Numbered from the stretch's first letter, positions 10,143 through 29,201 are shown. The stretch: 32,000 nucleotides of DNA from Candidatus Saccharimonadota bacterium (GCA_000503915.1 CP006915.1:270001-302000); one strand, 5' to 3'. Program-made: numbers and translations. The notes: a model not told the origin generated them from the sequence alone.

Positions 10143-11246
10143 ATGGAACTCACAGTAACTCAGGAAAATTTCACAAAAGCGCTTAGTAATGCCAGTCGTG
10201 TAGCTAGCTCAAAAGCAGGACTGCCGATTCTTAGTAATATCCTTTTAAGGACAGATGGCTCAAGACTCCTCGTCGCTGCAACAAACCTTGAAGTAGCTAC
10301 AATGAATGCTATCGGTGCGAAAGTTAGTAAGCCAGGCTCGATCACAATCCCAGCCCGCTTAATTAGTGAGTTTGTACAAAACCTTCCAAAAGAGCAGATT
10401 ACTTTAACGGTAAAAAATAGCAAACTTCACCTATCGTCTGGTGCCTATTCTTCAACAATAAACGGATTGGCCGATGATGAGTTTCCAGAACTCCCCACTA
10501 TCGATACTAAAAGGGCTGTCAGCTATAGCATTACGACCGATGATCTAAAGCAAGCCGTATCACAAACAATCATTGCCTCAAGTAGTGACACTACCCGGCC
10601 GGTATTAACTGGTGTGTTCTGGCATTCCCATAACGGGCACGTCTATCTTGCAGCAACCGATGGCTACCGTCTCACGGAAAGAAAAATCGTCAAAACATCA
10701 AGTGAGCTTGCGGCTATTATTCCCACCTCAAGCCTCCAGGAAGTTTTACGGAGCCTCCGTGATGACATCCACGAGATTGAGATATTATTCGATGAAACTC
10801 AAGCAACGTTTCGTTTCGCGGAAATAGAGATCACCAGCCGCTTAATTGATGGTAGCTTCCCTGACTACCGTCAGCTAATCCCGGCAAAATCAGAAACAGT
10901 ATTCACTTTGAACCGGGAAGAATTTGTCCGCACAATTAAGATAGCTAGTTTGTTTGCGCGTGAGTCTGGCGGCGGTATTACATTAGCGCTCGATACTGAT
11001 AAAAAAACACTTACAATCCACTCTGTCGCATCGGAAGTTGGCGAAAACTCATCAGAGATTAATGTGACTACCACTGGTGCGGGGGGGAATGTTAGTCTCA
11101 ACTCGCGCTACCTACTCGATGCGCTCAGTGTTATGAATAGTGAAAATGTATCGTTTGAGTTTTCTGGTAAACTCGCTCCGTGTATTTTACATAATGACGC
11201 CAAAGAGCTCGACTATAAACATATTATTATGCCACTAAAGAGCTAG
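10143..11246 (+). CDS. dnaN: DNA polymerase III beta sliding clamp
   Basis: 367-aa ORF directly after dnaA. It has a typical DnaN N-terminus (F..AL..V.....K...PIL.NILL) and the three-domain length. Confidence 0.95.
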   Translation: MELTVTQENFTKALSNASRVASSKAGLPILSNILLRTDGSRLLVAATNLEVATMNAIGAKVSKPGSITIPARLISEFVQNLPKEQITLTVKNSKLHLSSGAYSSTINGLADDEFPELPTIDTKRAVSYSITTDDLKQAVSQTIIASSSDTTRPVLTGVFWHSHNGHVYLAATDGYRLTERKIVKTSSELAAIIPTSSLQEVLRSLRDDIHEIEILFDETQATFRFAEIEITSRLIDGSFPDYRQLIPAKSETVFTLNREEFVRTIKIASLFARESGGGITLALDTDKKTLTIHSVASEVGENSSEINVTTTGAGGNVSLNSRYLLDALSVMNSENVSFEFSGKLAPCILHNDAKELDYKHIIMPLKS

Positions 11247-11926
11247 CCGCCGATTATATCGAGATTGAAACTGTACTGATTAGAGTTAAGACCCTTAGAA
11301 GAAAGATATTTCTTCGCTTCAGCGACACGCTGTTTTATGATAGTTGCCTTATTGCCAAGATCGACCCGTGAGAGATACACAGTAAGATCGATCGTCAAAA
11401 GTGTCTCTCCATCCGGTGTGGTAACAAAACTTGGCGCAAGCGCGTATGACAGCGTACTGTACGGAATATAGTACATTATTGGGTCGGTATAGTAGGCTGG
11501 TCGCTCGCCCTCAAGACGCTTAATCTCTTTTTGTTGATCATTTGGAAGATCGTTAAACGATATGTCTCTCGGAGTAAATCGTACAGTACTGTCGTACTTG
11601 AAGCCGTCGTTAGACACGGCCTTAAGGCTAAATAATGCTTCTTTCCCGGCCGATAGGTTGGCGCTATTTAGGTAGAGCTTTATCGTTGACCCTTTCACCG
11701 ATACCTTGTCTTCAAATATCACCCCATTTCCCTCTATCTTCACACTGGAGGATTTAAGTGGTTTATTGAAGTTAAGTTCAAGCGAGGGGGTTTGGTAAGA
11801 TATGGAACCAAGCGATGGGTTGCTTGAGCTGATATAGAGAGTAAAAAAGAAACGAAGCACAAAAAAACCTATAATTATAAGTGGGAGCAACGAGGCAACT
11901 AAGATTATTTTCTTTGTAATTATCAT
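11243..11926 (-). CDS. Membrane-anchored hypothetical protein (N-terminal TM, extracytoplasmic beta-rich/Ig-like segment); last gene of the T4SS-like operon
   Basis: 227-aa ORF with one N-terminal hydrophobic helix (IILVASLLPLIIIGFFVLRFFF). The segment LELNFNKPL...VKIEG...STIKLYLNS...LFSLKAVSNDG has the rhythm of an SbsA/Big-type Ig-like domain. It starts 8 nt after the CHAP hydrolase gene. I recognise no catalytic motif. Confidence 0.5.
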   Translation of the reverse strand: MIITKKIILVASLLPLIIIGFFVLRFFFTLYISSSNPSLGSISYQTPSLELNFNKPLKSSSVKIEGNGVIFEDKVSVKGSTIKLYLNSANLSAGKEALFSLKAVSNDGFKYDSTVRFTPRDISFNDLPNDQQKEIKRLEGERPAYYTDPIMYYIPYSTLSYALAPSFVTTPDGETLLTIDLTVYLSRVDLGNKATIIKQRVAEAKKYLSSKGLNSNQYSFNLDIIGG

Positions 11927-11934
11927 TTTATCCC

Positions 11935-13188
11935 CTACTCTTTCGGTGAAACATAACCAACGATACTATCATTCCAGTCGTCTTTGGTGACGCTTGAGGT
12001 AGACGGTCCACCGTCGCCGGATTGGTTGCCACCAATTTTCATCACAACACCGTTATCGGCTGATACGACGATACTGACATGGCTTACTGAACTTCCCTTT
12101 TGTATTTGTAAGTCACCTGGCTGTGGGGTGTAACCTGCGGCGTTGTGGTAGACGAACTTATCGCCATCCTTGCCTATTTGCGCCACTTCATCCACGGTTG
12201 GGACATTACCCCCATTGCTAGTCTTTAATGGGTAGCCGGCTTGGCTATAGATCCAGCTGACGAAATCAGCACACCAGTTTTCATCACGGCCTTGGCTATA
12301 CTTATGAAAGTCGGTACCGGGCTTTAGCACATCACCTTCCCATAACTGTAACTCTTTCTCAGCCAGTGCCAGTACTCGCTGGCGCACTTCGCCGGATTGG
12401 GCGGTCTGACATGAATCGGTCGAGGAAATGCCAGCCATCGCTCCATAGACAACAAACGCCCCGTAGTCGTCATTAGCTGGATAGACTATACCGCCACCGT
12501 CGGTCTGGATCTGGCCCCAGCCTGTGGGGTTGCGCTCTGGGTCGCGGGGTTCATCAGCAATATTCATAACGTACGGCGAACCTTCATAGGGCTGGTTGAA
12601 GCCAAGTCGGGTAGCTTGCTCGGCGTAGACACTGGCGCGGCCGTTGTAGCTGAATAATGTGTCTTTTATGGCACTAATATCGCCGTTTTTGAGTAGTTCT
12701 GGGCTGGACGAAGCGTTCTTGAGAAAGTCTGCAGCCTCAGAACTTTGCTTGGCAAACGTGACGTCGTCGATGGTTGGAGACGCTGGGTAATTGACCGAAA
12801 GAATCTGGTAAGGACCGTCGCCGTTTACCGGGTTGTAGCGGCGCAAGCCGGTCTCGCGCAGATGGATGACGGCCAGTAGCTGCCAAGGAATACCGGCCTT
12901 GTCTGCCGCCGCTTCGTAAAACGGCTTATTTTCATTAAGCGCTTTTAGTTGGGCATCGGAGAGAATTGGACGGCTACGGTAGTCTTTATTCGTGCCAGTT
13001 CCCGCTATACCACTGAGTGAGCCTTGTTCGCAGACAGCGCCGCTCGCATCAGGGTTGTAATAGATAATATCGTTGCCCGAAAAAAACTGTTCGTCGAATG
13101 CATAGACCGACGAGCTATATAGCATCGATACGGTGAATGCTACCGCTAAAACTTGATACGAAATCCTCTGTTTATTTATCGTGCGCAT
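11935..13188 (-). CDS. Secreted cell-wall hydrolase: lysozyme/SLT-like N-domain plus C-terminal CHAP amidase/peptidase domain (VirB1/PrgK-type T4SS hydrolase)
   Basis: 417-aa ORF with a signal peptide (MRTINKQRISYQVLAVAFTVSMLYSSSVYA). The N-domain IPWQLLAVIHLRETG...NPVNGDGPYQI resembles the ES...GxxGxMQ core of lytic transglycosylases. The C-domain has the CHAP catalytic Cys context NWCADFVSWIY and a downstream His (VSHVSIVV). It overlaps the upstream giant gene by 13 nt. Confidence 0.75.
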   Translation of the reverse strand: MRTINKQRISYQVLAVAFTVSMLYSSSVYAFDEQFFSGNDIIYYNPDASGAVCEQGSLSGIAGTGTNKDYRSRPILSDAQLKALNENKPFYEAAADKAGIPWQLLAVIHLRETGLRRYNPVNGDGPYQILSVNYPASPTIDDVTFAKQSSEAADFLKNASSSPELLKNGDISAIKDTLFSYNGRASVYAEQATRLGFNQPYEGSPYVMNIADEPRDPERNPTGWGQIQTDGGGIVYPANDDYGAFVVYGAMAGISSTDSCQTAQSGEVRQRVLALAEKELQLWEGDVLKPGTDFHKYSQGRDENWCADFVSWIYSQAGYPLKTSNGGNVPTVDEVAQIGKDGDKFVYHNAAGYTPQPGDLQIQKGSSVSHVSIVVSADNGVVMKIGGNQSGDGGPSTSSVTKDDWNDSIVGYVSPKE

Positions 13189-16100
13189 GGAGCTGCCGCC
13201 TTGCGAGTAAATTCCTGGAGGTTTATTGACGTACCGTCCATAGCGAGGAAAACATCCTGAGGGCAGATATGTTTACCATCGAGTGCCATATCAATATGAA
13301 GGTGCGCGCCGTCAACTTTACAGCCAAGCTTACCCAGGCTTAGTATTTGCTGCCCGGCTTTGACGTTGTCGCCGACTTTGAATTTTGGATTAGTGCCGTG
13401 TCCGTACGCAATTTGCAGTTTTCCTTGAGAGGTGTCTGATTCGATTATCATACCATCTCCCAGGCCACAGAGATTTGTTCGCGTGACTATACCGTCGAGC
13501 ATTGAATAAATCGGCGAGCCGAGCGGTGGACTACTTATATCCACGGCTATCCCAATAGCGTAAGGGCTTGTGAAGGTACCGCTTATTAGGGTGTGTGCGT
13601 CGAGGAAATCGCTCCGGTTTGATGTCCACCATTTTTTATTGACCGGCCAGGCAAAACCAGAGGCACTGACCGATCCGGTAGCTCCGAGGCCTGTCGTACT
13701 GGGAATTTCGACATCGCTATATACCATGTTATGGTCTGATCCGTCTTCGTCTTTGCCACCCCTGACGTATCCGTAATTACTAGCACGCATAGAGGTACTG
13801 ATAAATATATGGTCGATCAGATTATTGCCTCTAACGTCGCGTTCGCTTGGGCATTCGCCTGTTTTATTTTGCTGCGCATCAGACACATGCCATAGCAGCT
13901 CGTCTCGTGTCAGGATGCAGTAGGAGAGGTTCTCTCTCTTCCCGTCGAGTGGCTTATTCCCACTTGCTTCGACGGTCATCTTAGAGTTGAAGTCACCGGT
14001 AAATATCACGGGGGCATCGTTCAGCTCGTTTTTGATTAACGCTGCGTACATATCGTTATTATCTTTACGGTCTTGTGGTCCACCCGCAGAGTCGGCTCGT
14101 TTATTGATCGGGTCGTGCGTGTTGAGTACGTAAAATTCTGGTCCATTAGCCCCATTTTCAATATATCGAAGCTTCACAACATTGAGCTTGCGGTTGCCGT
14201 CGTATCTGATTTTCTTCTGTTGAGCGCTGACGAATTCAAACTTCGTTTTATTCCATAACACGACAGAGTCGGGGTTGACGTCTAGGTCTGCTCCGTCTCC
14301 CGGCTTTGTCGGCCACATATCATAGACGTCGGCTCCATACTCGGCACTTTTTAGTGCTACTTGCTGCTTTGGACGTGCCTCCTGGAGTCCGGCGATGTCG
14401 ATATTGTTGTCTTTCAGGGTAGCAATAGAGTCTTTGAGCCTATTATCCCAGGTGAGCGGGTCGTCAGCATGGAGGATATTAAAGGTTGCGACTCTAAACT
14501 GAGCACCAGTGCCGCTGTAGCTACTAGTGAGAGGTTCGTCGTCGCTACCATCAAGAATGTCACTAACCTGCTTGTCGTATTGATAGAGCGATTCGGCCGC
14601 TTTGGTTTTGTTGTCAATCGTGCAGCCACCGACCGACTCCAAATCAGCTTCCGCACAGTCGGCGAGCCGATCAGCGATCTTGCTGTCGTTTTCATCCCAC
14701 ATACCGGTATCTTTATTGATATTGGCGCCTTCCTCCTCGGTAGCGATTTTATATACCTCGTCAACCGACATATTGAGGTATTCTGCCGGTATACCGACAC
14801 ATGGGTAGCCGGCCGGATTGATAGCGATGTCGTCTTCGATATCAAACATACTGGCATGGCTACAACGCGCCTCGGCCGCCGCCGCGTCTTCCTCGGGGGT
14901 GGCGCCAGCCGTCGGCGAGATAATACTACTAGGAGTGCGGAGGAGTAATGAGCCGATCGACGACATGGAGGTGAACAGATTGTTTGATAAAACACCACTG
15001 GTCGATAGGCCGGAGACAATACTTCCCATGAAGGTGTACTTACTGGATATGTCAAACGGGTTTAGGGTGGCAATAGCCTCTTGCCGGTAGTCATTCTCGA
15101 CATCATCCATTGCCTGGTTGAAAGCGACTACCTGGTTTGTCTTTAGTACACCCCCACCACCCGCCAGGCCGCTCATAGAGAAGTAACTGAAAAGCCCCAC
15201 GCCGAGCGCGTCACCCAGTTTTTCGCCCCGCGCTCCCTCGGTGTAGTTATCAACAAAACCAGCAGTAAGCTTAAAGGCTTGATCTGCAACAAAGTTAATA
15301 AGGCCAGACTTGTCGGCAATCGTTATGAAAGCGTCTACTGCACCGATGCCAATAAGAACCTTAGCTACAGCTTTTAAAGTTGCCCATGCAACAAAAGAAA
15401 GGCCAAGCGTTTCTGGACCAGCTGCGGCTGCGACTGATGCATCCACAGCTGTGGCGGCTACAAGAGCTTCTGGACTCATTATCTTGTTACATGCACCATT
15501 AGTTGCTTTATTGAGCTTTCCGGTACCTTGTACGAAAGAGTTCTTATATGCGGCGTAGCCGGGGGCGTATCTTGAGTTAGGGGTTATATTCTTGTTCACT
15601 CCAATGGCACTGAGCAAGATTGCAGAATCAAGCGCTGATTTTCCGTCGACAGTCTCTGTAAGCTTCGACCCAAGCGCTGACACTTCTTCGGAGCTTGCTT
15701 CACCGGCTTTTATCTTCCCGGCAGGTGACAAAACGGCATCGTTAACCAACACAAGAATCTGGGCAAGTTGTATTGCTCGGTATGTTCCGGCAATAAAACC
15801 GGGAAGATTAGATAATACACAATATCCAGTGCCAAGCGTAAGTGATACACTTCCGCCCGATTTCTTAATCCGTTCACCTGATCTTTCTACGAGCGATTTG
15901 AATCTATCATGGAACTTCGCCTTCTTTGCCGTCTCATCAAGGTCGGAGCTGGAAGAATCAAGCTTTTTATCAAGCTCATCATCTACATTGTCGGCGTTAA
16001 GTTTCTTGTCATCCGAGGCGAGGCCACCAGTTTGAGCGAGACCAAACTTGCTGTAGAATACTTTCTTTATGTATTTCCCTGTCCACGCTCGGTAGCGCAT

Positions 16101-16847
16101 ACTGTAGGATTTCTTGAAAGCACTTCGAAGCTCAGGATTTCGTTTATATTCTTTGGCAAGTTCTGAGGCATTTATTGTCCGTTTGCCACCATCGGCCAGT
16201 GTGTCGGGGATTTCATATTTCGCCGGATTCCTGTCGGGATAGCCGGACTCTGAAGCTACTTTTATCTCTTTTCCATCGGCATCGAGCGGTTTGATGCCCT
16301 GGGCACTCATGCGGCTGAGCATTTTATTGGGCATTTTTCCCATATTACACTCATATTTGGACACCTTACAGCCGCTACTGTCGCCGCTACTGGACTTCTT
16401 CTCCAGCCATTTTACGAAGCGGTGATCCATGATGGTGCTGCGGCTATCGAGTGTATCAAGACTGTTGGCTTGGAGACTGGGGAACATACTGAAGCTTCCA
16501 AAAAGTGAGGAAAGGACAATCCCTAGGATCCCGACACCGCCGAATATACCGGTGGTAGCGCCTTTTCGACTTCCAGCGAAGCCGACTACTTTCTGCCGGA
16601 AACTACGGCCATCTCTTGGCTTAGTCTCCGAGGGTTGGTAGTTGTACTGATTCTCGCGGTTTTTGACATCATCGATATTCTGCGAGGCATTCGCTGGGTC
16701 ATTGGCGTAGGCTTCTGCCTGATCGAGACCGCTATTGGCGTAGTCACTGCCCGCTGCTTTTTCGCGTGCTTGAAGATCGGGATGCGTGTCGAACATCTCC
16801 CGTGCTCGTTCATCGATCTTGTCTTCACGTTTTATATTTTGAGCCAT
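13176..16847 (-). CDS. Giant membrane protein with a C-terminal endonuclease/exonuclease/phosphatase (EEP) domain and an M23/LytM-like peptidase domain
   Basis: 1223-aa ORF. The first ~95 aa are polar, followed by a TM (TGIFGGVGILGIVLSSLFGSF). A region of about 650 aa with several hydrophobic/amphipathic stretches has no motif I recognise. The EEP motif set lies at aa ~783-1043 (13719-14501): RVATFNIL, IAGLQEA, FTGDFNS, IDHIF, GSDHNMV. The M23 core lies at about 13230-13640: GSPIYSMLDGIV, AYGHG, GDNVKAGQ, GAHLHID. Confidence 0.8.
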   Translation of the reverse strand: MAQNIKREDKIDERAREMFDTHPDLQAREKAAGSDYANSGLDQAEAYANDPANASQNIDDVKNRENQYNYQPSETKPRDGRSFRQKVVGFAGSRKGATTGIFGGVGILGIVLSSLFGSFSMFPSLQANSLDTLDSRSTIMDHRFVKWLEKKSSSGDSSGCKVSKYECNMGKMPNKMLSRMSAQGIKPLDADGKEIKVASESGYPDRNPAKYEIPDTLADGGKRTINASELAKEYKRNPELRSAFKKSYSMRYRAWTGKYIKKVFYSKFGLAQTGGLASDDKKLNADNVDDELDKKLDSSSSDLDETAKKAKFHDRFKSLVERSGERIKKSGGSVSLTLGTGYCVLSNLPGFIAGTYRAIQLAQILVLVNDAVLSPAGKIKAGEASSEEVSALGSKLTETVDGKSALDSAILLSAIGVNKNITPNSRYAPGYAAYKNSFVQGTGKLNKATNGACNKIMSPEALVAATAVDASVAAAAGPETLGLSFVAWATLKAVAKVLIGIGAVDAFITIADKSGLINFVADQAFKLTAGFVDNYTEGARGEKLGDALGVGLFSYFSMSGLAGGGGVLKTNQVVAFNQAMDDVENDYRQEAIATLNPFDISSKYTFMGSIVSGLSTSGVLSNNLFTSMSSIGSLLLRTPSSIISPTAGATPEEDAAAAEARCSHASMFDIEDDIAINPAGYPCVGIPAEYLNMSVDEVYKIATEEEGANINKDTGMWDENDSKIADRLADCAEADLESVGGCTIDNKTKAAESLYQYDKQVSDILDGSDDEPLTSSYSGTGAQFRVATFNILHADDPLTWDNRLKDSIATLKDNNIDIAGLQEARPKQQVALKSAEYGADVYDMWPTKPGDGADLDVNPDSVVLWNKTKFEFVSAQQKKIRYDGNRKLNVVKLRYIENGANGPEFYVLNTHDPINKRADSAGGPQDRKDNNDMYAALIKNELNDAPVIFTGDFNSKMTVEASGNKPLDGKRENLSYCILTRDELLWHVSDAQQNKTGECPSERDVRGNNLIDHIFISTSMRASNYGYVRGGKDEDGSDHNMVYSDVEIPSTTGLGATGSVSASGFAWPVNKKWWTSNRSDFLDAHTLISGTFTSPYAIGIAVDISSPPLGSPIYSMLDGIVTRTNLCGLGDGMIIESDTSQGKLQIAYGHGTNPKFKVGDNVKAGQQILSLGKLGCKVDGAHLHIDMALDGKHICPQDVFLAMDGTSINLQEFTRKAAAPCAR

Positions 16848-16859: not shown

Positions 16860-18767
16860 TTATACGCTGTATTCACCGGGGTTCATATAGCCTGGATTGA
16901 CCACCGGTTGGCCTGGTGTGGGCGCTTGAGGAGGTTGTGGTTCCTGGGGCGCGAACTGTGCGTTGCCGCCGGTCGTAACAAGGCTATGCTCGGTTTCGCT
17001 GGCAACAACCTGGACATGGACGTGGTTTTGGCCGGCAAAGAACAGCCCCTGCCCTACCGGGAAGTTTGCGAGACGCTTTCGTTCTTCTTCGGTGAGTTTA
17101 AAGACGTCACTGAGAACATCGACAGCGCTTGAAGATTGCTTGAGCAGTAGCTGCATTGAGCTGTTGGCGACGATTGCCCGTCCCATCTTGCTACCCATAA
17201 AGTCTTCGACGTCCTGGGTGATGGTTGTGAGACCGAGCTGATATTTACGAGCGCGCTTGGCGAGGCTAAACAGGAAGTTTGCCGAGTCGTCATATTTCAT
17301 CAGTTGCCATGCCTCGTCGACGATCAGCATACGTTTACGCTGGTCGCTACGGGTAATGTTCCAGATATGAGATAGCACAATATACATAGCAACCGGACGG
17401 AGCTCATCCTCCAGGTCGCGAATGTTGAAGACCACCATGTGGTTGTTGATGTCGATATTGCTTTGCTGGGAAAAGATACCGGCAAAGGTGCCGCTAGTGT
17501 ACTTGCGCAGGCGTTGTGCCAGCTGTGGCCCGGTGCCGCCCATATGGAGCAAGGTGTCGTAGAGGTCGGAAATGGTGGGCGGTGTTGAGCGGTGTGTCAG
17601 CGGATCGGAGGTAATACCGGCGCGGGCGTAGGTGTCGATCAAGCCTTGATCGAGGTCGGCTTCTTCGGCTGGTGTTAAGCCGGCCATAATTTGGCCGTTG
17701 GCGGTAGCCTGGGAGCCACCGAGCATGAGGCGGAGCAAGCCGTGCAGGGTGACGAGATTGGCACGCAGCGCATCATCGGCTTCTTCGGTATCGATAACCT
17801 GCGGCAGGTCAAAAGGATTAATGCGGACGTCAGAGTTGAGGCTGAGGCGGATATAGCTTCCTCCGACGGCATCGGACAGTTTCTGATACTCATTTTCCGG
17901 GTCGACGATCAATATATCTGCGCCGATCATCATGCTGCGGATCGCCTCGAGCTTTACGGCAAATGACTTACCGGCACCCGACTTGGCAAAGACGACCATG
18001 TTGGCGTTTTCCAGGGTGAAGCGGTCAAAGATCACCAGGCCGTTGTTGTGCATATTTATACCGTAGAGGATTCCCTTTGAATCAGTTAAGTCGGCCGAAG
18101 TGAATGGAAAACTGGTTGAGATAGCGCCCGTATTCATGTTGCGGCGGATCTGCAATTGGTCGGTCATTTGTGGGACGGTGCTGTTGAGCCCCTGCTCCTG
18201 CTGCGAGCTGGCAACTTTCGAGAAGACAAGTTGCTGGCCAAAGATAGTTTCGATCTTGTGCTGGACGAAGCTGAGCTCGTCGAGGCTGTCGGCGTAGAGC
18301 GTGATGTAGAGGCCGTAGCGGAAAAAGCGCTCCGATCCTACCTGCAATTGGTCACGTAGTTCCTCAGCATCTTGGATAGCGGCTTCGAGTCCAGGATCGC
18401 GCGTACGTCCTTTTTCGCTGTTGATTGCCATACTGGCTTCGAGTTGGGTAACTTTTTTGCGCAGATTGTTGAGCACCACCTGGCTCTCGACTGGGTAAAT
18501 AAACATCGAGATGTCGAGCACTTCATCAATATTGATAATAGAACTCAACCATCCGGTGTAGATCTGGCGTGGATAGCCGTAGACGTAGAGAGTACGGCCG
18601 TACCTTGTGCCGAGGCGGAAGTAGCTGGAGTGGATCTCGAGGCTGCTCGGGGCGATCAGGTCGCGGAGAGTGGTGACGCCTTTTAGGAAGGCCTGCTCGA
18701 CCTCGGCTTGCTCACGGGCACGCTGCTGAGCAGCGATGTCGATCGGGTCAAGTTTTTTAGCTGCCAT
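16860..18767 (-). CDS. VirB4-like T4SS ATPase, middle and C-terminal ATPase portion (split VirB4, part 2)
   Basis: 635-aa ORF. Motifs: Walker A VFAKSGAGKSF near aa 260, Walker B RMLIVDEAW, LTTITQDVEDF. The N-terminal segment LIAPSSLEI...YGRTLYVYGYPRQIYTGWL is typical of the mid-region of Gram-positive VirB4/PrgJ/TcpF proteins. It has a P/Q-rich C-terminal tail. The start shares one base with the stop of the upstream ORF (TAATG at 18765-18769). Confidence 0.88.
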   Translation of the reverse strand: MAAKKLDPIDIAAQQRAREQAEVEQAFLKGVTTLRDLIAPSSLEIHSSYFRLGTRYGRTLYVYGYPRQIYTGWLSSIINIDEVLDISMFIYPVESQVVLNNLRKKVTQLEASMAINSEKGRTRDPGLEAAIQDAEELRDQLQVGSERFFRYGLYITLYADSLDELSFVQHKIETIFGQQLVFSKVASSQQEQGLNSTVPQMTDQLQIRRNMNTGAISTSFPFTSADLTDSKGILYGINMHNNGLVIFDRFTLENANMVVFAKSGAGKSFAVKLEAIRSMMIGADILIVDPENEYQKLSDAVGGSYIRLSLNSDVRINPFDLPQVIDTEEADDALRANLVTLHGLLRLMLGGSQATANGQIMAGLTPAEEADLDQGLIDTYARAGITSDPLTHRSTPPTISDLYDTLLHMGGTGPQLAQRLRKYTSGTFAGIFSQQSNIDINNHMVVFNIRDLEDELRPVAMYIVLSHIWNITRSDQRKRMLIVDEAWQLMKYDDSANFLFSLAKRARKYQLGLTTITQDVEDFMGSKMGRAIVANSSMQLLLKQSSSAVDVLSDVFKLTEEERKRLANFPVGQGLFFAGQNHVHVQVVASETEHSLVTTGGNAQFAPQEPQPPQAPTPGQPVVNPGYMNPGEYSV

Positions 18768-19645
18768 TATGCCCTACCTTTTGTGACGTAGGTGCTGGTC
18801 ACATTGTCAAAGTCACTAAGTGGCTGCCGGACGGCTGTGTCGGGGTTATAGATGTTGTAATACAGCTCGCCTAGCTCTTTGGTGTTCAGCTGGACGCTTT
18901 TGACGCCAAGCTGAAACAGTCCACTCATGACAGCATCGACACGGTTTTTGATCTCATCTTTTGCTTTATCGTAGGCGGCTTGGTCGATCTTGACTGGCTC
19001 GGTGCTTTGCTTGGCGAATAATTTACCGAAGAAGCCTTTTGCCTGATCGCGCAAGTCGGAAAGGTCACCCCCGGGGTAAAACGGCACGATGATAAAAAAG
19101 CTCTTGTCCATAATGTTGGCTTCCTGGCTCAGGACGTCGATAAAGTTGATGTAATCGTCCATCAGGACGCCGAGCAGCATATTGTCTTGGTTGCGCCGCA
19201 AAGTGGCGAGACGGTCGATGTAGGGGCCGATATCGACACGCTGTGAGCGGATAAACACTTGAGCGGGAAAATAGAGCGAGTTCAGAAAGTTCTGGTAGCT
19301 ATACTCTACCCCTTCGCGTTCTTTACTGCTCATGAGGTCGAAGTTGATCGACTTACAGGCGATGACAGCGCGAAAACTACCGTCGCGCATGATCACCATG
19401 CTCTCGCGAATTTCAGAGATCAGCAGAGTGTTCTGAGTCGTGTTGGGGTTTGGTTTTGGCTTGGCTGGTGCCGCCTGGCTTTGTGGCTGAACGGGACTTG
19501 CGGGAGTTACCGAGGGGGCTGGCTGTGGCGCAGCAACGGGAGGCACACTCGAAGAACCGATCGGGACGGTCGGTTGCTGTGGTGGCAGGGCTTGCTGGTT
19601 TGGGGTGTTAGGGGGCATTGCCGAAAAAGAGTTATTCCCACTCAT
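18767..19645 (-). CDS. VirB4-like N-terminal domain protein (split VirB4, part 1) with a P/Q-rich leader
   Basis: 292-aa ORF. The first ~70 aa are low-complexity P/Q/A/S. Then LISEIRESMVIMRDGSFRAVIACKSINFDLMSSKEREGVEYSYQNFLNSLYFPAQVFIRSQRVDIGPYI follows. This matches my memory of the N-terminal block of monoderm VirB4 homologues (I..I.dG.i...dg....v..v..iNf.L.s..E......f..fLn.l....Q). Confidence 0.6.
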   Translation of the reverse strand: MSGNNSFSAMPPNTPNQQALPPQQPTVPIGSSSVPPVAAPQPAPSVTPASPVQPQSQAAPAKPKPNPNTTQNTLLISEIRESMVIMRDGSFRAVIACKSINFDLMSSKEREGVEYSYQNFLNSLYFPAQVFIRSQRVDIGPYIDRLATLRRNQDNMLLGVLMDDYINFIDVLSQEANIMDKSFFIIVPFYPGGDLSDLRDQAKGFFGKLFAKQSTEPVKIDQAAYDKAKDEIKNRVDAVMSGLFQLGVKSVQLNTKELGELYYNIYNPDTAVRQPLSDFDNVTSTYVTKGRA

Positions 19646-19657
19646 TATGCCGATTTT

Positions 19658-20596
19658 CTAGCGAAGCGATATGACCACCTCATTCTCGGAAAGTTTTTCT
19701 TTCTCGTGGATGCGATTCGCTTCCCGCGCGATCGTTTCGACCGATAAATCGGGGTTATTTGCAAGGTTTATTATATCAGCAGACACGCTCTCAACGCTAG
19801 TGCTTTTCTCTGCTGGCTTTTGAGGTGGCGTCGTGTGGTTGACCGGTTCAACAACGGCTTGGTGCATAGTCGGATATGGATTGAAAGTCAGATGGGCGCT
19901 GGTGTCGTCTACTGCAGGCTGAGGGGCGGCGGTCTGAGACAGGTCAATGGTAGACGGTGGAGACTGCTGTATAGGGGCTTGAGCTGGTGCTGCCGCCTGC
20001 TGACGGGCGCGTGCCAGTACTTCCTCGTGATACTTCGTATTAGTTTGTTCGAGACGTGAGCCAAATGCGGTGCCAACGCTGGCGGTACTATCGAGTATAT
20101 CCTCTGTCTGCTGGGCCTCGTAGTACATATCGGAATTCATAGAGCTATCGGGGGTGGGCGCTTGACCGGCGACGCCGCGGACTGCCCAGCCACGTGAATC
20201 GACGATATTAGCCAGATACGACAGGCGCTCTCTGGCCTCATCTTCGGATAAATCTTTTGTTCGCTGTACTTCTACTACTTTCGGTGCGGTAATCTCTACC
20301 AGTGTCTGTATGCCGTCGGGGTTCCACAGGCGTCGGTGCGGCTTTAGGTAAAAAGAGATAAGTGCGGCGAGATAAGTCTCCATCGGCTGGTCTTTTCGTA
20401 GTGGCAAAGCCAGTGCCCCAAAAAAGACGATCACGGGCAGTGGAATGATCATAAGCGGCAGAAAAAGCCGACTCAAAAACCAGGCAATCGTTAGCGCTCC
20501 CGCAACGATAATCAGGTAGATAAACTGACGAAAGCTAAACGGGCCGATGAGCTTGTCATCGGCCTCGACGTCTTGGGGGACTTTATAGACGGCCAT
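19658..20596 (-). CDS. PrgI/VirB3-like T4SS membrane protein with a long C-terminal extension
   Basis: 312-aa ORF. The N-terminus MAVYKVPQDVEADDKLIGPFSFRQFIYLII..., followed by two hydrophobic helices and LRKDQPMETYL...YLKPHRRLW, follows the PrgI-family pattern. It sits immediately upstream of VirB4, as PrgI/VirB3 does. The ~200-aa C-terminal extension includes a P/Q/A-rich segment. Confidence 0.7.
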   Translation of the reverse strand: MAVYKVPQDVEADDKLIGPFSFRQFIYLIIVAGALTIAWFLSRLFLPLMIIPLPVIVFFGALALPLRKDQPMETYLAALISFYLKPHRRLWNPDGIQTLVEITAPKVVEVQRTKDLSEDEARERLSYLANIVDSRGWAVRGVAGQAPTPDSSMNSDMYYEAQQTEDILDSTASVGTAFGSRLEQTNTKYHEEVLARARQQAAAPAQAPIQQSPPSTIDLSQTAAPQPAVDDTSAHLTFNPYPTMHQAVVEPVNHTTPPQKPAEKSTSVESVSADIINLANNPDLSVETIAREANRIHEKEKLSENEVVISLR

Positions 20597-20620
20597 ACTG
20601 CTTATAGTATAGCAAATCGA

Positions 20621-23569
20621 CTAGATATTTGGACCGTAAGTGGCCGCAGCAGCATCCTGCTCGTCCTTAGCTATCTTGTTAAGGATGGCATCGTGTAGAA
20701 CTTTAGCTTCTGGCTTAATGAGGTTATTGATCTGTGGATTAGAACGAGCCTCATTGATGGCTGTCTTCAAGCTAGCCTTTTGCGAGTCATTCAACTCTCC
20801 ATTGAGAGCTGCCTTGTGAATACGCTTCATCTCATCTGGATTCATGCTCGCCAGGCTGGCAGCAGAGAGCTTGGTACCAACTCGTTTGTTAATTTCTTCC
20901 TGCATATCCGTGACGCGTAGCGGGTTACCTTTCGCATCTTTCATGATTTTCCCGTCACTGTCGTGCATGACTTGACCGAGCTTACCTTCAACAAGTTGAC
21001 CAGTAGCCTGGTCGCCTAGTGCCCAAGGTTTATCTTTCATGTCATATGCCATTTGTTTTTGTACACTTGAAAGTGCCTCTACTTCTTTTGAGTTACCGGT
21101 TGTGTCAGCTTCGTTCATGAGTTTTGTAGCAATGTCCAGGGCTCGAATATGTGATTCACGATGGCTTCGAGACATCACCAGTCCTGCCGCTGCGGCTCGC
21201 TGCTCTGAGCTCAACGCAGTGTCACTTATCATGCCTATCAATTGATCATTACTTGCACTGGTCAGGGTCGTTTTAAAAGCACTGACGTCATCATCAAATT
21301 GTTTATGTATTCCTTGAGTAGCGACAGCCGCAGCGCGTACACGAGCCGATTCGTCGGCTTGACTGATAGCACTTCCGCCCGCCGCCGCGTTCTGTAGTTT
21401 TATCGCACGCTCCGTGTAGTTGCCGTTTGCGTCAGTATCCCCGAGTTGGTTGGCCATATAGGTACTTCCGCTTCGCTTCGCTTCACCCTCTCTCGATGCC
21501 AGTAGAGAGTCTCGTCGTGTCTTGTATCGACTATAAGCACCCAGTTTGCTACTTCCAAGCCACCCTTCTTTGTTGTGGGCTGCTATATTCCATCGGTTAC
21601 CTACGTCTTTTTTCATTCGTTCAGCCTGCTCGCTAAATCGCTTCTTATTTCTACTAGCCGCCGCTCCTTGTGCCCTGTCCGCCATACCACTCAACTTTGC
21701 ACCGATAGATCCAGTTGCAGACAAGGCGCTTTTTAGTACGATTGGCACGGCAAAGAGTGGTACTGCCATGACACCGAGCGCGGTGATTTGCAGCATGTAG
21801 TTGCTTTCGTCAGGGTCTCCCCCGGCGTTATTGATGATGCGGGCAGCCAAAGTACTGGCACCAAATATAACGCCGACCACCGGAAATACCAGTAGTAACG
21901 AACTAAACATCTTCCACCACTTCTTGAACCATTTTTCGGTATTTGGCAGCAGGTACGCAACGAAAGCCAAGGGCGAGACGACGACCAGGAGGATCAAAGC
22001 AGCCTTTCGTGCGATCAAGATGAGAATGATAAGAGCGAATGCGAGCAGGGCTGCCGTGCTGATGGTAGTTATGGCAAGCAGGCCAACGACCAGTGCCGCT
22101 GCGCCGACTAGCACGAAGCCTATGACTTTTTTCCAACTTGGCAGATCCGACGCGGTGGCAGAGATGGCGTCTGTTGTCGGCATATCCTTAAAGAATGAGT
22201 AAATGCTACTGCCGAGGATGTTACTCAGGTCGACGGCGATCTGACATACAAAGTACGAAAGGTTGACGAGTACAGCAGCGATGAATAGCCGCGGCAGCAT
22301 GCGTTTAATACCGTAGTTTGAGACACCAGTTCCGGTGATCTGCGAGTAGACAATGATCAGAAAGACAATCACGAATGCCACGTTGGCGATATCACGGAAG
22401 TTACTCCAGGCAGCGCGGGTATCATTATCGGTCAACAGCTTCGGCTCAATCGTGAGAAAGTCAGAGATAAACCCGAAAGCTGCGTCATTGAGCCCTCCCA
22501 TGAAGTTCATGATTGGGCAGATAATCCAGCCTACCCCTTCCACGCTACACGAAGTAGTGGGCTCGGCAGGGGTACATTCCCCAGTGCTATTATTCCAGGT
22601 ACCGCCGTTTTTTTCACATTTTTCTTTTTCCCCTTTTAATCTGTCTCTTTCTTTAGTAGCTTTATCGACGCACTCTTGTCGATCGTTCTTATCCTGCAAG
22701 GCTCTACATGTTTGGTTTATGTATTCATCAGTTGCTTCGGCTGTGATAATCGAATAATTGCCATCGAGTATTCTCGTAGCATTTGCACGAGTCGTACAGG
22801 TTGCTACTGAGATGGAGGGGGAGCTTTTTAGGCACGTAATGATGGATTTGTAGTAATTACACCGCTCAATACTATCTTGGGAACTAGTGGTGCAAACAAT
22901 GGCTGCGTCTGCTTTTTTGATCTGCTCTTTCCTGCGAGCCTTACAGGCGCTATCATCCTTTTTGCAGGTCTCTATCGTGACGCCCATGAAGGTTTCACCG
23001 GTAGGCTCAGAGATGTTGCCAAACGCCACTTGGTTACTGCCCAGCTGCTGGATATCTCTAACCGCCGATGTACAGTCGGAGTCTTCTTTTTGATTATCGA
23101 GGTTGTCGTCACGGCGTACACCTACAAAACTACCGCCAGACCGCGTATTAGCGTCAATCTTAATGGCGACATCACACGAAATGCGCTCACCTTTATCTGT
23201 AACCGCCTCTACTCCATTATTAGTGGCGTACTGTGTGTGGGTAATATATAATTCGTTCTCTCTGGAGTATTTAAAATAAATCTCGGCGGTGTCTTCATTA
23301 TAGTAGTCTTTGTTGTGGCTATTTTCCCCCTCACCAAACACCCACTTATCTCCATCTTTTCTGAACATTGGAATGGATGTGACGTTTGGATCACTAATGA
23401 AACCACCTTTGGCCGAGATAAGACTTTCATAACTCAATGTGTAGGTCGGTTGTGTGCCGTCAGCGTGGACAACTTGACTCGTGTAGAAACTAGCTATAAA
23501 AACCGCTAGGAGTAAGCTCAGGTATAACAGTGGCTTATTTTTTATTTTTATAAGACTAAGCATAATCAT
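20621..23569 (-). CDS. Giant VirB6/TrbL-like polytopic T4SS channel protein, paralogue A (Cys-rich ectodomain, ~7 TM, charged C-terminal tail)
   Basis: 982-aa ORF. It has a signal peptide/anchor (LLYLSLLLAVFIASFYTSQVVHA), an ectodomain of about 300 aa with about 16 Cys, and the conserved junction SCSVEGVGWIICPI. A multi-TM core follows (LPRLFIAAVLVNLSYFVCQIAVDLSNILG; SPLAFVAYLLPNTEKWFKKWW), then a hydrophilic tail of about 340 aa. It is clearly paralogous to 24650-27913. Confidence 0.75.
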   Translation of the reverse strand: MIMLSLIKIKNKPLLYLSLLLAVFIASFYTSQVVHADGTQPTYTLSYESLISAKGGFISDPNVTSIPMFRKDGDKWVFGEGENSHNKDYYNEDTAEIYFKYSRENELYITHTQYATNNGVEAVTDKGERISCDVAIKIDANTRSGGSFVGVRRDDNLDNQKEDSDCTSAVRDIQQLGSNQVAFGNISEPTGETFMGVTIETCKKDDSACKARRKEQIKKADAAIVCTTSSQDSIERCNYYKSIITCLKSSPSISVATCTTRANATRILDGNYSIITAEATDEYINQTCRALQDKNDRQECVDKATKERDRLKGEKEKCEKNGGTWNNSTGECTPAEPTTSCSVEGVGWIICPIMNFMGGLNDAAFGFISDFLTIEPKLLTDNDTRAAWSNFRDIANVAFVIVFLIIVYSQITGTGVSNYGIKRMLPRLFIAAVLVNLSYFVCQIAVDLSNILGSSIYSFFKDMPTTDAISATASDLPSWKKVIGFVLVGAAALVVGLLAITTISTAALLAFALIILILIARKAALILLVVVSPLAFVAYLLPNTEKWFKKWWKMFSSLLLVFPVVGVIFGASTLAARIINNAGGDPDESNYMLQITALGVMAVPLFAVPIVLKSALSATGSIGAKLSGMADRAQGAAASRNKKRFSEQAERMKKDVGNRWNIAAHNKEGWLGSSKLGAYSRYKTRRDSLLASREGEAKRSGSTYMANQLGDTDANGNYTERAIKLQNAAAGGSAISQADESARVRAAAVATQGIHKQFDDDVSAFKTTLTSASNDQLIGMISDTALSSEQRAAAAGLVMSRSHRESHIRALDIATKLMNEADTTGNSKEVEALSSVQKQMAYDMKDKPWALGDQATGQLVEGKLGQVMHDSDGKIMKDAKGNPLRVTDMQEEINKRVGTKLSAASLASMNPDEMKRIHKAALNGELNDSQKASLKTAINEARSNPQINNLIKPEAKVLHDAILNKIAKDEQDAAAATYGPNI

Positions 23570-23578
23570 TTAAGAATG

Positions 23579-23607
23579 ATTATGCCCTAGTTCTATCTAA
23601 ACATCAA
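23579..23607 (-). promoter_or_regulatory. Sigma70-like promoter for VirB6-like paralogue A
   Basis: On the minus strand: TTGATG (23602-23607), a 17-nt spacer, then CATAAT (23579-23584). Only 9 nt separate the -10 element from the ATG at 23569, and there is no SD. This implies a leaderless or near-leaderless mRNA. Confidence 0.4.
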
Positions 23608-23619
23608 TAATAAGAAGAT

Positions 23620-23644
23620 GGCTCGACTTCGGTGGAGTCGAGCC
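23620..23644 (-). terminator. Intrinsic terminator-like hairpin after the 295-aa gene
   Basis: A 9-bp perfect stem (ggctcgact at 23620-23628 / agtcgagcc at 23636-23644) with a 7-nt loop, 8 nt downstream of the stop at 23652. On the minus strand a T-rich tract (TCTTCTTATTATT) follows. Confidence 0.5.
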
Positions 23645-23651
23645 TATACTA

Positions 23652-24539
23652 TTAACCTTCGTTGATCTTTATAGTTCCATCTTTTTGCTGAACCAGCTGG
23701 TAGGGCTGTTCTAGTTTTACGTCGATGGATTTATGTTCTGAGTAATTATTGTCTTGGTCTTGCACCATATATTCGACGCGCAGATAGCTCAAGTCAGGGT
23801 AATTCACTGGATCGTTCACAAATGACGAGTAAACACTACAGCCATAGTCCTGTGGTGCGGTGTCATTTGAAGCGGTAGGACAGACGAATGTGCCGATATC
23901 CTTGACGTCGGGGTTTTCTGCAAGAATTTGTGCGGCAATATCTTTGAGAGAGTTCACGATCTCCGAATCAGGTGTATCGGTAAAGTCGCTCACCGGAATT
24001 TTGTCGACAGGAATGTCGGGGTTTTCTACGAGCACTCCTAAGTACCAGTTGAGGTCTTCACGGATGCTTTTATTGAAAACGCTGCCCCATTCGTCATCGC
24101 TAATACCCTCTAGTATATTCGCATCAAACTGAACGCGATCTTTGTTCTGGAACAGCGCCTCGATTCTTTGATCGAGCGTCTCGGTATCAATTTTAGTTAT
24201 GCCAGGCTCTTTGGTGCCCGGGTCGGCAGACTCGCCGCCACTAGTTGCTACTAATGCGCCGCCAATACCTATAACACTAGTGGCTACCATTCCTGCGATA
24301 GCTCGGCGGTGTCTCCGCATAAAGCTTTCGTTGGATTTCGCTGGGGCTTCTTGCACCACATCGACAGGTTGAGTCAACGGTGTGATGTCTCTAGAACTTT
24401 CGGGAATTTTTAGAGTTGCATCGGCTAGAGGGATGTCAGACTCTTCAAACGGGCGCTCTCCATGATGGACTCCTGAGTGAGGAATTTGTTCCTTGGATCG
24501 ATTACCGTTGCCGAATGTGAATGGTTCTTGGTTGGCCAT
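23652..24539 (-). CDS. Bitopic membrane protein of unknown function (candidate VirB8/TcpC-position T4SS component)
   Basis: 295-aa ORF. It has a polar N-terminus of about 80 aa, one TM (AIAGMVATSVIGIGGALVATSG) and an extracytoplasmic domain of about 190 aa. It is sandwiched between the two VirB6-like genes, with its own predicted promoter and terminator. I recognise no diagnostic motif. Confidence 0.45.
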   Translation of the reverse strand: MANQEPFTFGNGNRSKEQIPHSGVHHGERPFEESDIPLADATLKIPESSRDITPLTQPVDVVQEAPAKSNESFMRRHRRAIAGMVATSVIGIGGALVATSGGESADPGTKEPGITKIDTETLDQRIEALFQNKDRVQFDANILEGISDDEWGSVFNKSIREDLNWYLGVLVENPDIPVDKIPVSDFTDTPDSEIVNSLKDIAAQILAENPDVKDIGTFVCPTASNDTAPQDYGCSVYSSFVNDPVNYPDLSYLRVEYMVQDQDNNYSEHKSIDVKLEQPYQLVQQKDGTIKINEG

Positions 24540-24588
24540 ATGATATGGTTCCCCTGCGCCTAGTACGCTTTACTGATGTATGTTTGCT

Positions 24589-24617
24589 ACTATACACCAA
24601 ATTCACGAAAAATGCAA
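24589..24617 (-). promoter_or_regulatory. Sigma70-like promoter for the 295-aa bitopic protein gene
   Basis: On the minus strand: TTGCAT (24612-24617), a 17-nt spacer, then TATAGT (24589-24594). It lies about 50 nt upstream of the ATG at 24539. Confidence 0.45.
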
Positions 24618-24649
24618 GCGTGTGCTTTTTACGTCAAGGGTTGACAGGA

Positions 24650-27913: not shown

Positions 27914-27959
27914 TCTACCTCGCGGGAAGCTTAAGACTAACTCCCACATATCGCTTCTA

Positions 27960-28749: not shown

Positions 28750-29201
28750 TGAAACGGTTTACTCATTTTGTTATTTCAGGACTCATTGTCATCCTTGGCA
28801 TGGGGGCAATGACACTGACGGTGGCACCAACGAGCTATGCCGCCCCGAAAGCTGACTGTAGTACGTCAAACTTCCTTACTTTTCCTGCCTGGTACAGGGG
28901 GCTTATAAATGAAGATGACTGTACGATGAAGAGCCCGAGCCAGCTTGGTGGCGATGATGAGACGAAACTATCGCGTTATATCTGGCGGATTGTTCTGAAC
29001 GTCCTCGAAATCGCGCTGCAGGTCGTCGGTTACGCGGCGGTCGCATACCTTATCTATGGCGGCTACAAGTACCTGGTGAGCACTGGTAGCCCCGACAAGA
29101 TTACGGCAGCTCGTAAAACGATCCAAAACGCTTTGATTGGCCTGATACTGTCCTTTATGTCGGTGGCGATTGTCGCAACGATTGCTGGAGGGATCAAGTA
29201 G
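28746..29201 (+). CDS. VirB2/TrbC-like T4SS pilin paralogue 2
   Basis: 151-aa ORF. It starts at TTG 28746 (AGGAGG 9 nt upstream) or ATG 28749 and overlaps the stop of paralogue 1. It has a signal peptide (…TVAPTSYA), two Cys in the mature N-region and a C-terminal two-helix hairpin (VVGYAAVAYLIYGGYKYLVSTGSPDKITAARKTIQNALIGLILSF). Confidence 0.65.
   Translation: MMKRFTHFVISGLIVILGMGAMTLTVAPTSYAAPKADCSTSNFLTFPAWYRGLINEDDCTMKSPSQLGGDDETKLSRYIWRIVLNVLEIALQVVGYAAVAYLIYGGYKYLVSTGSPDKITAARKTIQNALIGLILSFMSVAIVATIAGGIK

Follow-up and report, generated by a model that had tools for sequence, protein, structure and literature searches.

What is a phosphoesterase-fold domain doing in a membrane protein of a secretion operon in an epibiotic bacterium, and on what might it act? 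The question is raised by a gene in a 32,000-nucleotide stretch of Candidatus Saccharimonadota bacterium DNA (GCA_000503915.1, CP006915.1:270001-302000; hereafter the window, to which coordinates refer unless another sequence is named). Its product carries an EEP (Exo_endo_phos) domain between a long N-terminal region, here called the scaffold, and a Peptidase_M23 module, and the gene lies directly past virB4 in a type IV secretion system (T4SS) operon. The EEP domain has all of its core residues and occupies a C-terminal slot whose contents are swapped among orthologues; the same fusion recurs in at least 99 protein clusters, and actinobacterial conjugative plasmids carry counterparts of it. 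Our preferred but tentative answer is that the domain would serve as an extracytoplasmic phosphoesterase that helps the T4SS to breach a phosphate-rich, actinobacterial-type wall, to which we give a probability of roughly 0.45. The parts of the protein are the following.

13176..16847, minus strand: target gene, 1223 aa, T4SS-associated, with scaffold, EEP, and M23 (from the list of open reading frames (ORFs) and translation)
16548..16847, minus strand: N-terminal ~100 aa, predicted to be cytoplasmic; no cysteine, basic right before the transmembrane segment (RSFRQKVVGFAGSRKG)
16491..16547, minus strand: transmembrane anchor, aa 101-119 (IFGGVGILGIVLSSLFGSF); Kyte-Doolittle mean 1.96 over 19 aa
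14523..16490, minus strand: helical scaffold, aa ~120-775, conserved across Saccharibacteria (alignments and AlphaFold2 (AF2) model)
13719..14501, minus strand: EEP domain, aa 783-1043 (Pfam, AF2 model with Foldseek, and conserved catalytic residues)
14472-14495, minus strand: EEP motif RVATFNIL, aa 785-792
14376-14396, minus strand: EEP motif IAGLQEA, aa 818-824
aa 908-912, minus strand: sixth EEP motif, LNTHD
13983-14003, minus strand: EEP motif FTGDFNS, aa 949-955
13851..13919, minus strand: EEP cysteine pair, C977 (in YCILT) and C999 (in ECP), conserved in homologous domains
13803-13820, minus strand: EEP motif LIDHIF, aa 1010-1015
13722-13742, minus strand: EEP motif GSDHNMV, aa 1036-1042
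13263..13544, minus strand: Peptidase_M23, aa 1102-1195 (Pfam E 1.9e-10, PDB M23 matches, and family alignment)

A first reading of the sequence (the original prediction) had described a complete EEP domain at 13719-14501 from five motifs, preceded by an N-terminal transmembrane segment and followed by M23. All of these were found where expected, together with the motif LNTHD, which had not been among the five, and Pfam PF03372 matched aa 787-1039 over its entire profile (1-225 of 225; E 1.6e-12; 48.1 bits, cut-off 24.5). The catalytic and metal-binding set is complete: N790, E823, N909/H911, D952/N954, D1012, and D1038/H1039. Seven of these residues (N909, H911, D952, N954, D1012, D1038, and H1039) were invariant in an alignment of nine EEP sequences, and N790 and E823 were absent from one truncated sequence only; R927, Y976, C977, and D990 are conserved specifically within the subfamily. 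All eight core catalytic residues were kept in 130/136 scaffold-fused EEP copies and, where the domains occur as tandem pairs, in 34/37 and 33/36 copies of the two positions, the clusters compared being less than 50% identical to each other. The AF2 model of the domain (pLDDT 80.3, pTM 0.86) allowed the fold search that the original prediction had proposed: the top Foldseek match had an E value of 2e-15, with TM-scores of 0.6-0.7, and 152 PDB entries matched at E ≤ 0.001; all 50 of the matches listed were EEP proteins of the four-layer alpha/beta-sandwich fold, the closest being secreted Bacteroides EEPs. The domain is intact and, judging from its residues, is predicted to be an active metal-dependent phosphoesterase. 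NCBIfam contains no EEP subfamily model that matches it, and automated annotation already names some members "EEP family metal-dependent hydrolase". Its isoelectric point (5.1-5.3) was considered as an indicator of nuclease function and dropped as uninformative, the subfamily having a median of 6.1 and a range of 5 to 9.3. The cysteine pair is also a family trait: 118 of 200 EEP domains contain exactly two cysteines, 117 show the pattern (Y/F/H/W)-C-(I/V/L/M)-(L/M), and a second cysteine follows ~22 residues on in 115 of those 117 (median C977/C999-type spacing, 22 residues). C977 and C999 probably form a disulfide.

The fusion is not peculiar to this genome. Among 72 species-level orthologues of the scaffold, the C-terminal tails comprised VanY (39), Peptidase_C39_2 (8), M23 (7), NlpC/P60 (4), M15_4 (3), EEP (2), and C70 (1), and EEP was accordingly taken to be a rare insertion (2/72); this was revised when an exhaustive profile search showed the fusion to be common, as the 72-locus sample had been drawn with a single peptide pattern and is probably not representative. 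A word-indexed search with EEP alone gave few matches, and an exhaustive search with a profile of the EEP alignment was used instead; it returned 11,993 proteins at E ≤ 1e-3 and 517 cluster representatives at E ≤ 1e-30. EEP lies after residue 600 in 99 of the best 150 representatives, and all 99 have the N-terminal scaffold according to an iterated hidden Markov model, 98 of them with full-length matches (E 1e-78 to 1e-223) and one (P0046) with a partial match (E 1e-17). Fusion of scaffold and EEP therefore counts at least 99 protein clusters at 50% identity. One EEP copy is present in 59 of the 99, two in tandem in 39, and three in one. Past the last EEP, the tail is M23-like in 57, CHAP in 19, Y_phosphatase3 in six, the PF04185 phosphoesterase in two, GH43 in two, GDPD in one, and a divergent EEP in one, and M15-like tails also occur; P0003 joins EEP to CHAP. 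The modules that co-occur with EEP (GDPD, PF04185 phosphoesterase, Y_phosphatase3, and GH43) target polymers of the envelope or small phosphoesters, and no nuclease family is among them. Some scaffold proteins, for example P0022, P0043, P0044, P0111, and P0123, have two to three EEPs or Y_phosphatase3, PF04185, GDPD, or GH43 tails and are without a peptidoglycan hydrolase.

The gene next to the scaffold gene varies as well. In the 72-locus survey, it encoded Phage_lysozyme2 (18 loci), C39_2 (8), CHAP (6), SLT (4), GH43 (1), GDPD (1), or EEP (1). Four loci close to the window by VirB4 identity illustrate the combinations: EEP and M23 are followed by a lysozyme gene in L011 (VirB4 91%), by GH43+lysozyme+CHAP in L005 (90%), and by GDPD+CHAP in L008 (86%), while L013 (89%) has a scaffold with M23 only and places EEP+CHAP in the next gene. 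Relative to P0001, the EEP of the target is 91% and its scaffold 81% identical; relative to P0002, the EEP (13698-14522) is 33% and the scaffold 59% identical. The latter relationship is the reverse of that with P0001, which suggests that an EEP cassette was replaced and did not simply drift. Stand-alone relatives also exist. P0016 (L081, 2737-4101) is a membrane-anchored EEP of the same subfamily with no T4SS; it adjoins two polysaccharide deacetylases, a sortase, and a GT2 glycosyltransferase, which is a cell-envelope neighbourhood. P0018 has a PD-(D/E)XK protein and seryl-tRNA synthetase as neighbours. For both, the context is weak.

A tblastn search of the EEP against 72,556 plasmids matched three actinobacterial plasmids; the phage database contained no relative of it. 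The plasmid genes are these.

NZ_CP124682.1, ~62377-65493 (locus L088, 12399-15515): intact 1039-aa ORF, Nocardioides sp. QY071 pCHL
NZ_CP097985.1 (locus L085, 10459-13605): ORF of the same type, Pimelobacter simplex pA-N39
NZ_CP096277.1: ORF of the same type, a further Pimelobacter simplex plasmid (the ORFs have 1039-1048 aa)

The pCHL ORF is directly downstream of a VirB4-like "ATP-binding protein" that is 23% identical to the VirB4 of the window over 317 aa (E 3e-9); the ATPase is preceded by an "SCO6880 family protein" and a "type IV secretion system protein", and a type IV coupling protein (T4CP) is encoded two genes past the ORF. The ORF product has a signal/transmembrane anchor, a divergent but motif-complete EEP, a muramidase (8b2e, E 4e-8), an EEP of the target subfamily (target profile E 3e-37, with the cysteine pair kept as HC...PC), a 9flh-like domain, and M23, the plasmid M23 being of the canonical HxGxD type. 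Several metagenomic representatives of ~780-1055 aa share the muramidase-EEP-M23 layout. In pA-N39, an IS256/metal-resistance/integrase island separates the ORF from the VirB4 cluster, and a T4CP and a MobF relaxase are nearby. These ORFs are under-annotated, as the C-terminal 170 aa in pCHL (an M23 peptidase in PLSDB) and as 501 aa in pA-N39. They are like the target in having the same EEP subfamily followed by M23, a signal/transmembrane anchor, and a position next to a VirB4-like ATPase of a T4SS, but they have no homology to the Saccharibacteria scaffold (E > 1), contain an extra EEP, the muramidase, and the 9flh-like domain, and belong to plasmid conjugation and not to a relaxase-less chromosomal system. 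Among the scaffold proteins, P0023 ends in a divergent EEP that is similar to the N-terminal one of the Nocardioides protein.

To which EEP subfamily the domain is closest was determined by ranking all PDB sequences with the nine-sequence EEP profile. The best solved match was BVU_0621 (3g6s; E 1e-23), followed by BT3783 (3mpr/4c1r; E 1e-16); all other solved EEPs were at 4e-7 or weaker, namely TDP2 (4e-7), CCR4/CNOT6 (1e-6), ExoIII (1e-5), Nocturnin (3e-4), PDE12 (0.06), and, as the sole sphingomyelinase, human nSMase2, whose E value of 0.41 is not significant. DNase I and CdtB gave no profile match even at E ≤ 10, nor were they among the 50 Foldseek matches listed; bacterial sphingomyelinases and inositol 5-phosphatases likewise had no profile match at E ≤ 10 among PDB sequences. 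Foldseek recovered the same EEP groups without finer discrimination. As is predicted for the target EEP, BVU_0621 and BT3783, its best matches by both profile and Foldseek, are secreted, but they are single-domain proteins of ~270 aa from polysaccharide-utilisation loci and have no link to secretion systems or peptidoglycan hydrolases. BT3783 is the only characterised protein among the top-tier matches: it is a Mg2+-bound phosphatase of a yeast-mannan utilisation locus and acts on phosphorylated cell-wall mannan and N-glycan (PMC4978465).

Where would the domain act? The EEP and C-terminal modules are most probably extracytoplasmic in an N-in/C-out topology, as the original prediction had also proposed, because the flanks of the transmembrane segment follow the positive-inside rule (five K/R in the preceding 20 aa, one after it), all cysteines lie past it, the EEP has its own cysteine pair, and the peptidases must reach the wall. 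The 14 cysteines are distributed as eight in the scaffold, two in EEP, and four in the M23 region; the scaffold columns are mostly invariant or nearly so in the alignments, and the scaffold likely holds several disulfides. The N-terminal ~100 aa are of low confidence in the AF2 model, and the scaffold is nearly all-helical with a pLDDT of 64.7. The original prediction could not place the ~650 aa that precede EEP, and in terms of family and fold that holds: no Pfam, NCBIfam, or PHROG family was found for the scaffold, its model had no Foldseek match at E < 0.1, and no PDB sequence matched outside the M23 part. The region is, however, a scaffold conserved across Saccharibacteria. Phage tape-measure proteins, which are long and helical, contain hydrophobic segments, and carry lysins at the C-terminus, were weighed as an analogue, but this found no support. 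Two hydrophobic helices within the scaffold, aa 350-376 (15720-15800) and aa 483-511 (15315-15401), are both conserved, and few stretches of the scaffold are better conserved than the first (IAGTYRAIQLAQIL..D..LSPAGK.KAG). These helices might either span the membrane in addition to the anchor or insert into the membrane of a target.

Scanning genomes with the single target protein revealed no relative, and a pattern derived from the alignment was needed; with one genome per species, this found 126 scaffold relatives, nearly all titled Saccharibacteria, Nanosynbacter, or TM7. In 15 full-length relatives, aa 1-775 are common and the C-terminus differs. The scaffold is only 25-42% identical to the genome-scan relatives, whereas the neighbouring VirB4 shows 84-91% identity in the top 30 of 78 Saccharibacteria loci, and this fast divergence, together with cargo swapping, hints that the host wall is the target. 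The linkers between modules are low-complexity sequences rich in Ser, Thr, Gly, and Asp. In the M23 module of the window subgroup, the HxH motif (AHLHID) is kept, but the His of HxxxD is replaced by Gly (AIGIAVD, as against HxGxD elsewhere in the family); a conserved FL(D/G)xH (FLDAH here) lies upstream and might substitute for the missing His. No SLT or muramidase glycosidase was detected in the target protein, and Pfam detected only CHAP in the next gene of the window; in relatives, the lysozyme/SLT modules sit in that next gene.

The closest known functional parallels are PrgK of pCF10, TraG of pIP501, and CwlT of ICEBs1, which are likewise encoded in a T4SS operon beside virB4, have an N-terminal anchor and several extracytoplasmic hydrolase modules, and are credited with making an opening in the wall through which the secretion channel passes, as we propose for the target (PMC12102498). 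The target lies within the T4SS cluster beside virB4, the position by which VirB1-like proteins are recognised. The known proteins differ in that they combine only a glycosidase (SLT/muramidase) with a peptidase (CHAP/NlpC-P60/LytM), no phosphoesterase having been found described in them, and in that they are without the ~650-aa helical scaffold; moreover, the glycosidase belonging to the target system is a separate neighbouring gene. For VirB1-like proteins of Patescibacteria, the only domains described are ones of wall metabolism, for example M23 and LysM (PMC12102498). Among the papers searched, none linked EEP/Exo_endo_phos to Patescibacteria or to T4SS hydrolases, so the novelty claimed by the original prediction stands as far as the literature goes; the architecture itself is no singularity, recurring as it does in at least 99 clusters and on plasmids. 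SEML1_0007 of Southlakia epibionticum ML1 is also a large gene directly past virB4 (1113 aa) with a C-terminal wall-peptidase fold, and it is essential for epibiotic growth by transposon sequencing (Wang et al. 2023, PMC10633639). Unlike the target, its C-terminus is of the Hedgehog/DD-peptidase (VanY-like) type with no EEP, and its N-terminus is likened to the scaffold by position and by the VanY-type orthologues of cultivated Saccharibacteria and not by its sequence.

We return to the preferred reading. In it, the target would be the component that bears the cargo and breaches the wall in a Saccharibacterium T4SS that is oriC-proximal and of the Gram-positive (MPF-FATA-like) type; the probability given above is for this reading as a whole. 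The EEP would be a metal-dependent enzyme for phosphate-containing envelope material and not for nucleic acids; teichoic-acid-type or sugar-phosphate wall polymers, or the phosphodiester linkage to peptidoglycan, are candidate substrates, and these presumed phosphate-containing substrates are ones that peptidoglycan hydrolases would be unable to remove. Together with M23 and the lysozyme/CHAP protein of the next gene, EEP would clear a path through the wall for the T4SS channel or pilus. We infer the catalytic activity, the location, and the class of substrate, and likewise whose wall would be opened, be it the host's, the epibiont's own, or both. A phosphate-bearing wall polymer is favoured because the neighbouring modules are not nucleases, because the subfamily occurs on plasmids that transfer DNA, and because its nearest solved relatives are directed to glycans; the importance of the gene position follows from the essentiality of its positional equivalent SEML1_0007. 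Several points weigh on the other side. The activity of this EEP subfamily is a prediction, and no EEP enzyme is known to attack teichoic acids or the linkage units of the wall. BT3783 and 3g6s are only 18-19% identical to the domain (Foldseek), too little for their substrate specificity to be carried over. The second-tier relatives TDP2, CCR4, ANGEL2, Nocturnin, and ExoIII all act on nucleic acids or nucleotides, and PF04185 and Y_phosphatase3 would fit a route from nuclease to nucleotide to nucleoside equally well. The topology is predicted, and the helices at aa 350-376 and 483-511 could be membrane segments. With the canonical HxxxD His gone, the M23 module may be an active variant or may be degenerate and EnvC-like. 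Finally, Patescibacteria are without nucleotide synthesis, and one has been reported to feed on host RNA (bioRxiv 10.64898/2026.06.21.733656).

The last points lead to the alternative that survives best, which the original prediction had raised and which we regard as possible but unlikely: a contact-dependent surface nuclease that degrades host or environmental DNA and RNA, with accessory phosphatases finishing the process and feeding a nucleotide-auxotrophic epibiont. In other bacteria, reduced or Gram-positive ones, EEP nucleases are known at the cell surface, such as Mycoplasma MnuA, Streptococcus SpnA, and Vibrio Xds; these too are extracytoplasmic EEPs of nucleic-acid-scavenging organisms, but they have nucleic-acid-binding accessory domains, which the target is without, and no fusion to wall hydrolases or link to a T4SS. 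The second-tier solved relatives (TDP2, CCR4, and ExoIII) are phosphodiesterases of nucleic acids or nucleotides, whereas the top tier consists of glycan-directed secreted EEPs, and the classical nucleases DNase I and CdtB are not matched. Tandem EEPs followed by PF04185 or Y_phosphatase3 would suit stepwise breakdown of nucleic acids, and a patescibacterial parasite has been reported to consume host RNA by a route involving T4SS-like tubes (bioRxiv 10.64898/2026.06.21.733656). EEP is nevertheless always fused or adjacent to wall hydrolases, GDPD and GH43 co-occur with it, and most orthologues of the 72-species sample, including cultivated Nanosynbacter strains, are without EEP. The same subfamily is, in addition, part of a wall hydrolase on conjugative plasmids that transfer DNA; for these, nutrient harvesting is beside the point, and a free DNase would work against them. 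Recurrence in at least 99 clusters and on such plasmids thus makes a nutrient-harvesting explanation specific to epibionts unnecessary.

Less likely again is a lipid-directed phosphodiesterase or phosphatase (sphingomyelinase/PLC- or phosphoinositide-phosphatase-like) that opens the host membrane or harvests lipids, its targets being host membrane phospholipids or lipid-anchored glycans. GDPD, PF04185 (which includes phospholipase C and AcpA), and Y_phosphatase3 all have relatives acting on lipid head groups, the conserved hydrophobic helices of the scaffold could approach a membrane, and Patescibacteria, according to the literature, have no fatty-acid or phospholipid synthesis and appear to take host lipids. 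The sphingomyelinase/phospholipase-like and inositol-phosphatase-like activities that the original prediction had suggested are nonetheless among the least supported functions, given the insignificant nSMase2 match and the absence of bacterial sphingomyelinases and 5-phosphatases from the profile matches. Inositol polyphosphate 5-phosphatases carry the signatures GDxN(F/Y)R and P(A/S)W(C/T)DR(I/V)L; where these would stand, the target reads GDFNSK and NLIDHIFIS, so that neither GDFNS nor LIDHIF resembles GDxN(F/Y)R or WxDR. The domain is also tethered beside peptidoglycan peptidases and not beside membrane-binding modules.

Slightly more improbable still, in our estimate, is a polymorphic effector, in which the scaffold would be a delivery vehicle (cf. 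evolved VgrG and Rhs/CDI proteins) and the C-terminal enzymes, EEP among them, would be split off by cleavage and passed onto or into host cells as toxins or as effectors that manipulate the host. A conserved N-terminus with a highly variable enzyme slot is what polymorphic toxins display, and the flexible low-complexity linkers, the discordance between module and scaffold in P0002, a scaffold evolving very fast beside a near-frozen VirB4, and the fact that the Y_phosphatase3 tail also matches a polymorphic-toxin phosphatase family would all agree with delivery. Yet neither the window nor the syntenic loci showed a small, variable gene of the immunity type, and in every locus inspected the genes downstream encode a second hydrolase and an exported protein of the PEGA type; the protein is anchored by its single N-terminal transmembrane segment, most cargo consists of ordinary peptidoglycan hydrolases typical of VirB1-like assembly factors, and the actinobacterial plasmid counterpart has the same enzymes without the scaffold. 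A decayed, non-catalytic EEP acting as a binding or spacer domain is very improbable: the neighbouring M23 has lost its HxxxD His, and modules of this protein can thus drift, but the eight core residues are intact in the target and in nearly all fused copies, and the greater conservation of EEP than of scaffold relative to P0001 indicates the stronger constraint on EEP.

The remaining genes of the cluster are as follows.

11243..11926, minus strand: 227-aa protein in the slot of a PEGA-domain exported protein in relatives
11935..13188, minus strand: second hydrolase gene, 417 aa, C-terminal CHAP, directly downstream of the target (Pfam)
16860..18767, minus strand: VirB4-like ATPase, directly upstream of the target in the operon (NCBIfam conju_CD1110 E 1e-111; Pfam TraG P-loop)
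18767-19645, minus strand: TrsD/TraC-like, T4SS operon (Pfam and NCBIfam)
19658-20596, minus strand: PrgI/VirB3, T4SS operon (Pfam and NCBIfam)
20621-23569, minus strand: VirB6/TrbL, T4SS operon (Pfam and NCBIfam)
23652-24539, minus strand: 295-aa protein, T4SS operon
24650-27949, minus strand: 1099-aa polytopic protein, T4SS operon (the remaining operon spans 18767..27949)
28060..30757, plus strand: six small ORFs divergent from the T4SS operon, candidate VirB2-like pilins by position and sequence shape only

The target gene begins 12 nt past the virB4 stop codon and overlaps the next gene by 13 nt, and the original prediction was right to set it between VirB4 and a CHAP hydrolase. This gene order is kept in the relative loci L011, L083, and L084, and virB4 is directly upstream of the scaffold gene in 61 of 78 related loci; the locus of P0004 has full synteny with the window through dnaN, dnaA, and yidC, its second gene encoding GH43+lysozyme+CHAP. 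Pfam matched no family to the 227-aa protein; its counterpart in L011 has PEGA, and the Southlakia PEGA protein SEML1_0005 is essential (PMC10633639). The gene order across 18767..27949 equals that of SEML1_0009-0013 and of locus L083. The pilin-like ORFs (229, 151, 107, 129, 128, and 158 aa, with overlaps of a few codons between several of them) each encode a signal peptide and two C-terminal hydrophobic segments, and they occupy the position of the essential VirB2-like pilin array SEML1_0014-0019; such arrays have been described for T4SSs of Patescibacteria (PMC12102498). The whole cluster thus parallels the essential Southlakia T4SS gene for gene (SEML1_0005-0019). Because yidC, jag/khpB, dnaA, and dnaN are also in the window, the cluster is placed beside the chromosomal origin, and dnaA is ≤10 kb from the scaffold gene in 64/80 loci; the cluster fits the description of T4SSs of Patescibacteria as MPF-FATA-like, relaxase-less, and dnaA-proximal (PMC12102498). 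The hypothetical protein DHU97_00315 at NCBI (Candidatus Saccharibacteria bacterium) is an identical C-terminal fragment of the target. Two ORFs in other frames cross the scaffold/EEP junction (14361-14948, plus strand, 195 aa; 14414-15055, minus strand, 213 aa) and most likely just shadow the long gene without being coding themselves. At 406-6279, the window also contains a surface-glycan synthesis and export cluster with an ABC-2 permease, an ATPase with a C-terminal extension, GDP-mannose 4,6-dehydratase, a GT4 glycosyltransferase, two proteins of the NAD-dependent epimerase/dehydratase family, and a cupin-type mannose-6-phosphate isomerase C-terminal domain; the epibiont therefore produces a wall- or surface-associated glycopolymer of its own.

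We regard the target as a putative VirB1-like T4SS hydrolase with a module class without precedent on an orphan scaffold, and the search defined a large uncharacterised EEP subfamily of 517 cluster representatives at E < 1e-30. The T4SS of Patescibacteria was the first shown to be essential for its owner; it is relaxase-less, and the gene past virB4 provides concrete candidates for how these epibionts breach, and perhaps select, their actinobacterial hosts. The findings suggest that removal of peptidoglycan may not suffice for monoderm T4SSs, which may also have to strip phosphate-linked secondary polymers from the wall. As EEP and M23 occur together on conjugative plasmids of Actinobacteria, where manipulation is far easier, this is testable there. 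A broader proposal, possible but rather doubtful, is that the post-virB4 protein is a fast-evolving, cargo-swapping display platform, and that its EEP, GDPD, PLC-, PTP-type, and GH43 modules are the first T4SS activities that degrade envelope material other than peptidoglycan, being teichoicase-like on anionic, phosphate-linked wall polymers of actinobacterial envelopes; its modules appear to move between the epibionts and conjugative plasmids of the host phylum. If that is true, the cargo set would track, and could predict, the wall chemotype of the host and the host range of the epibiont.

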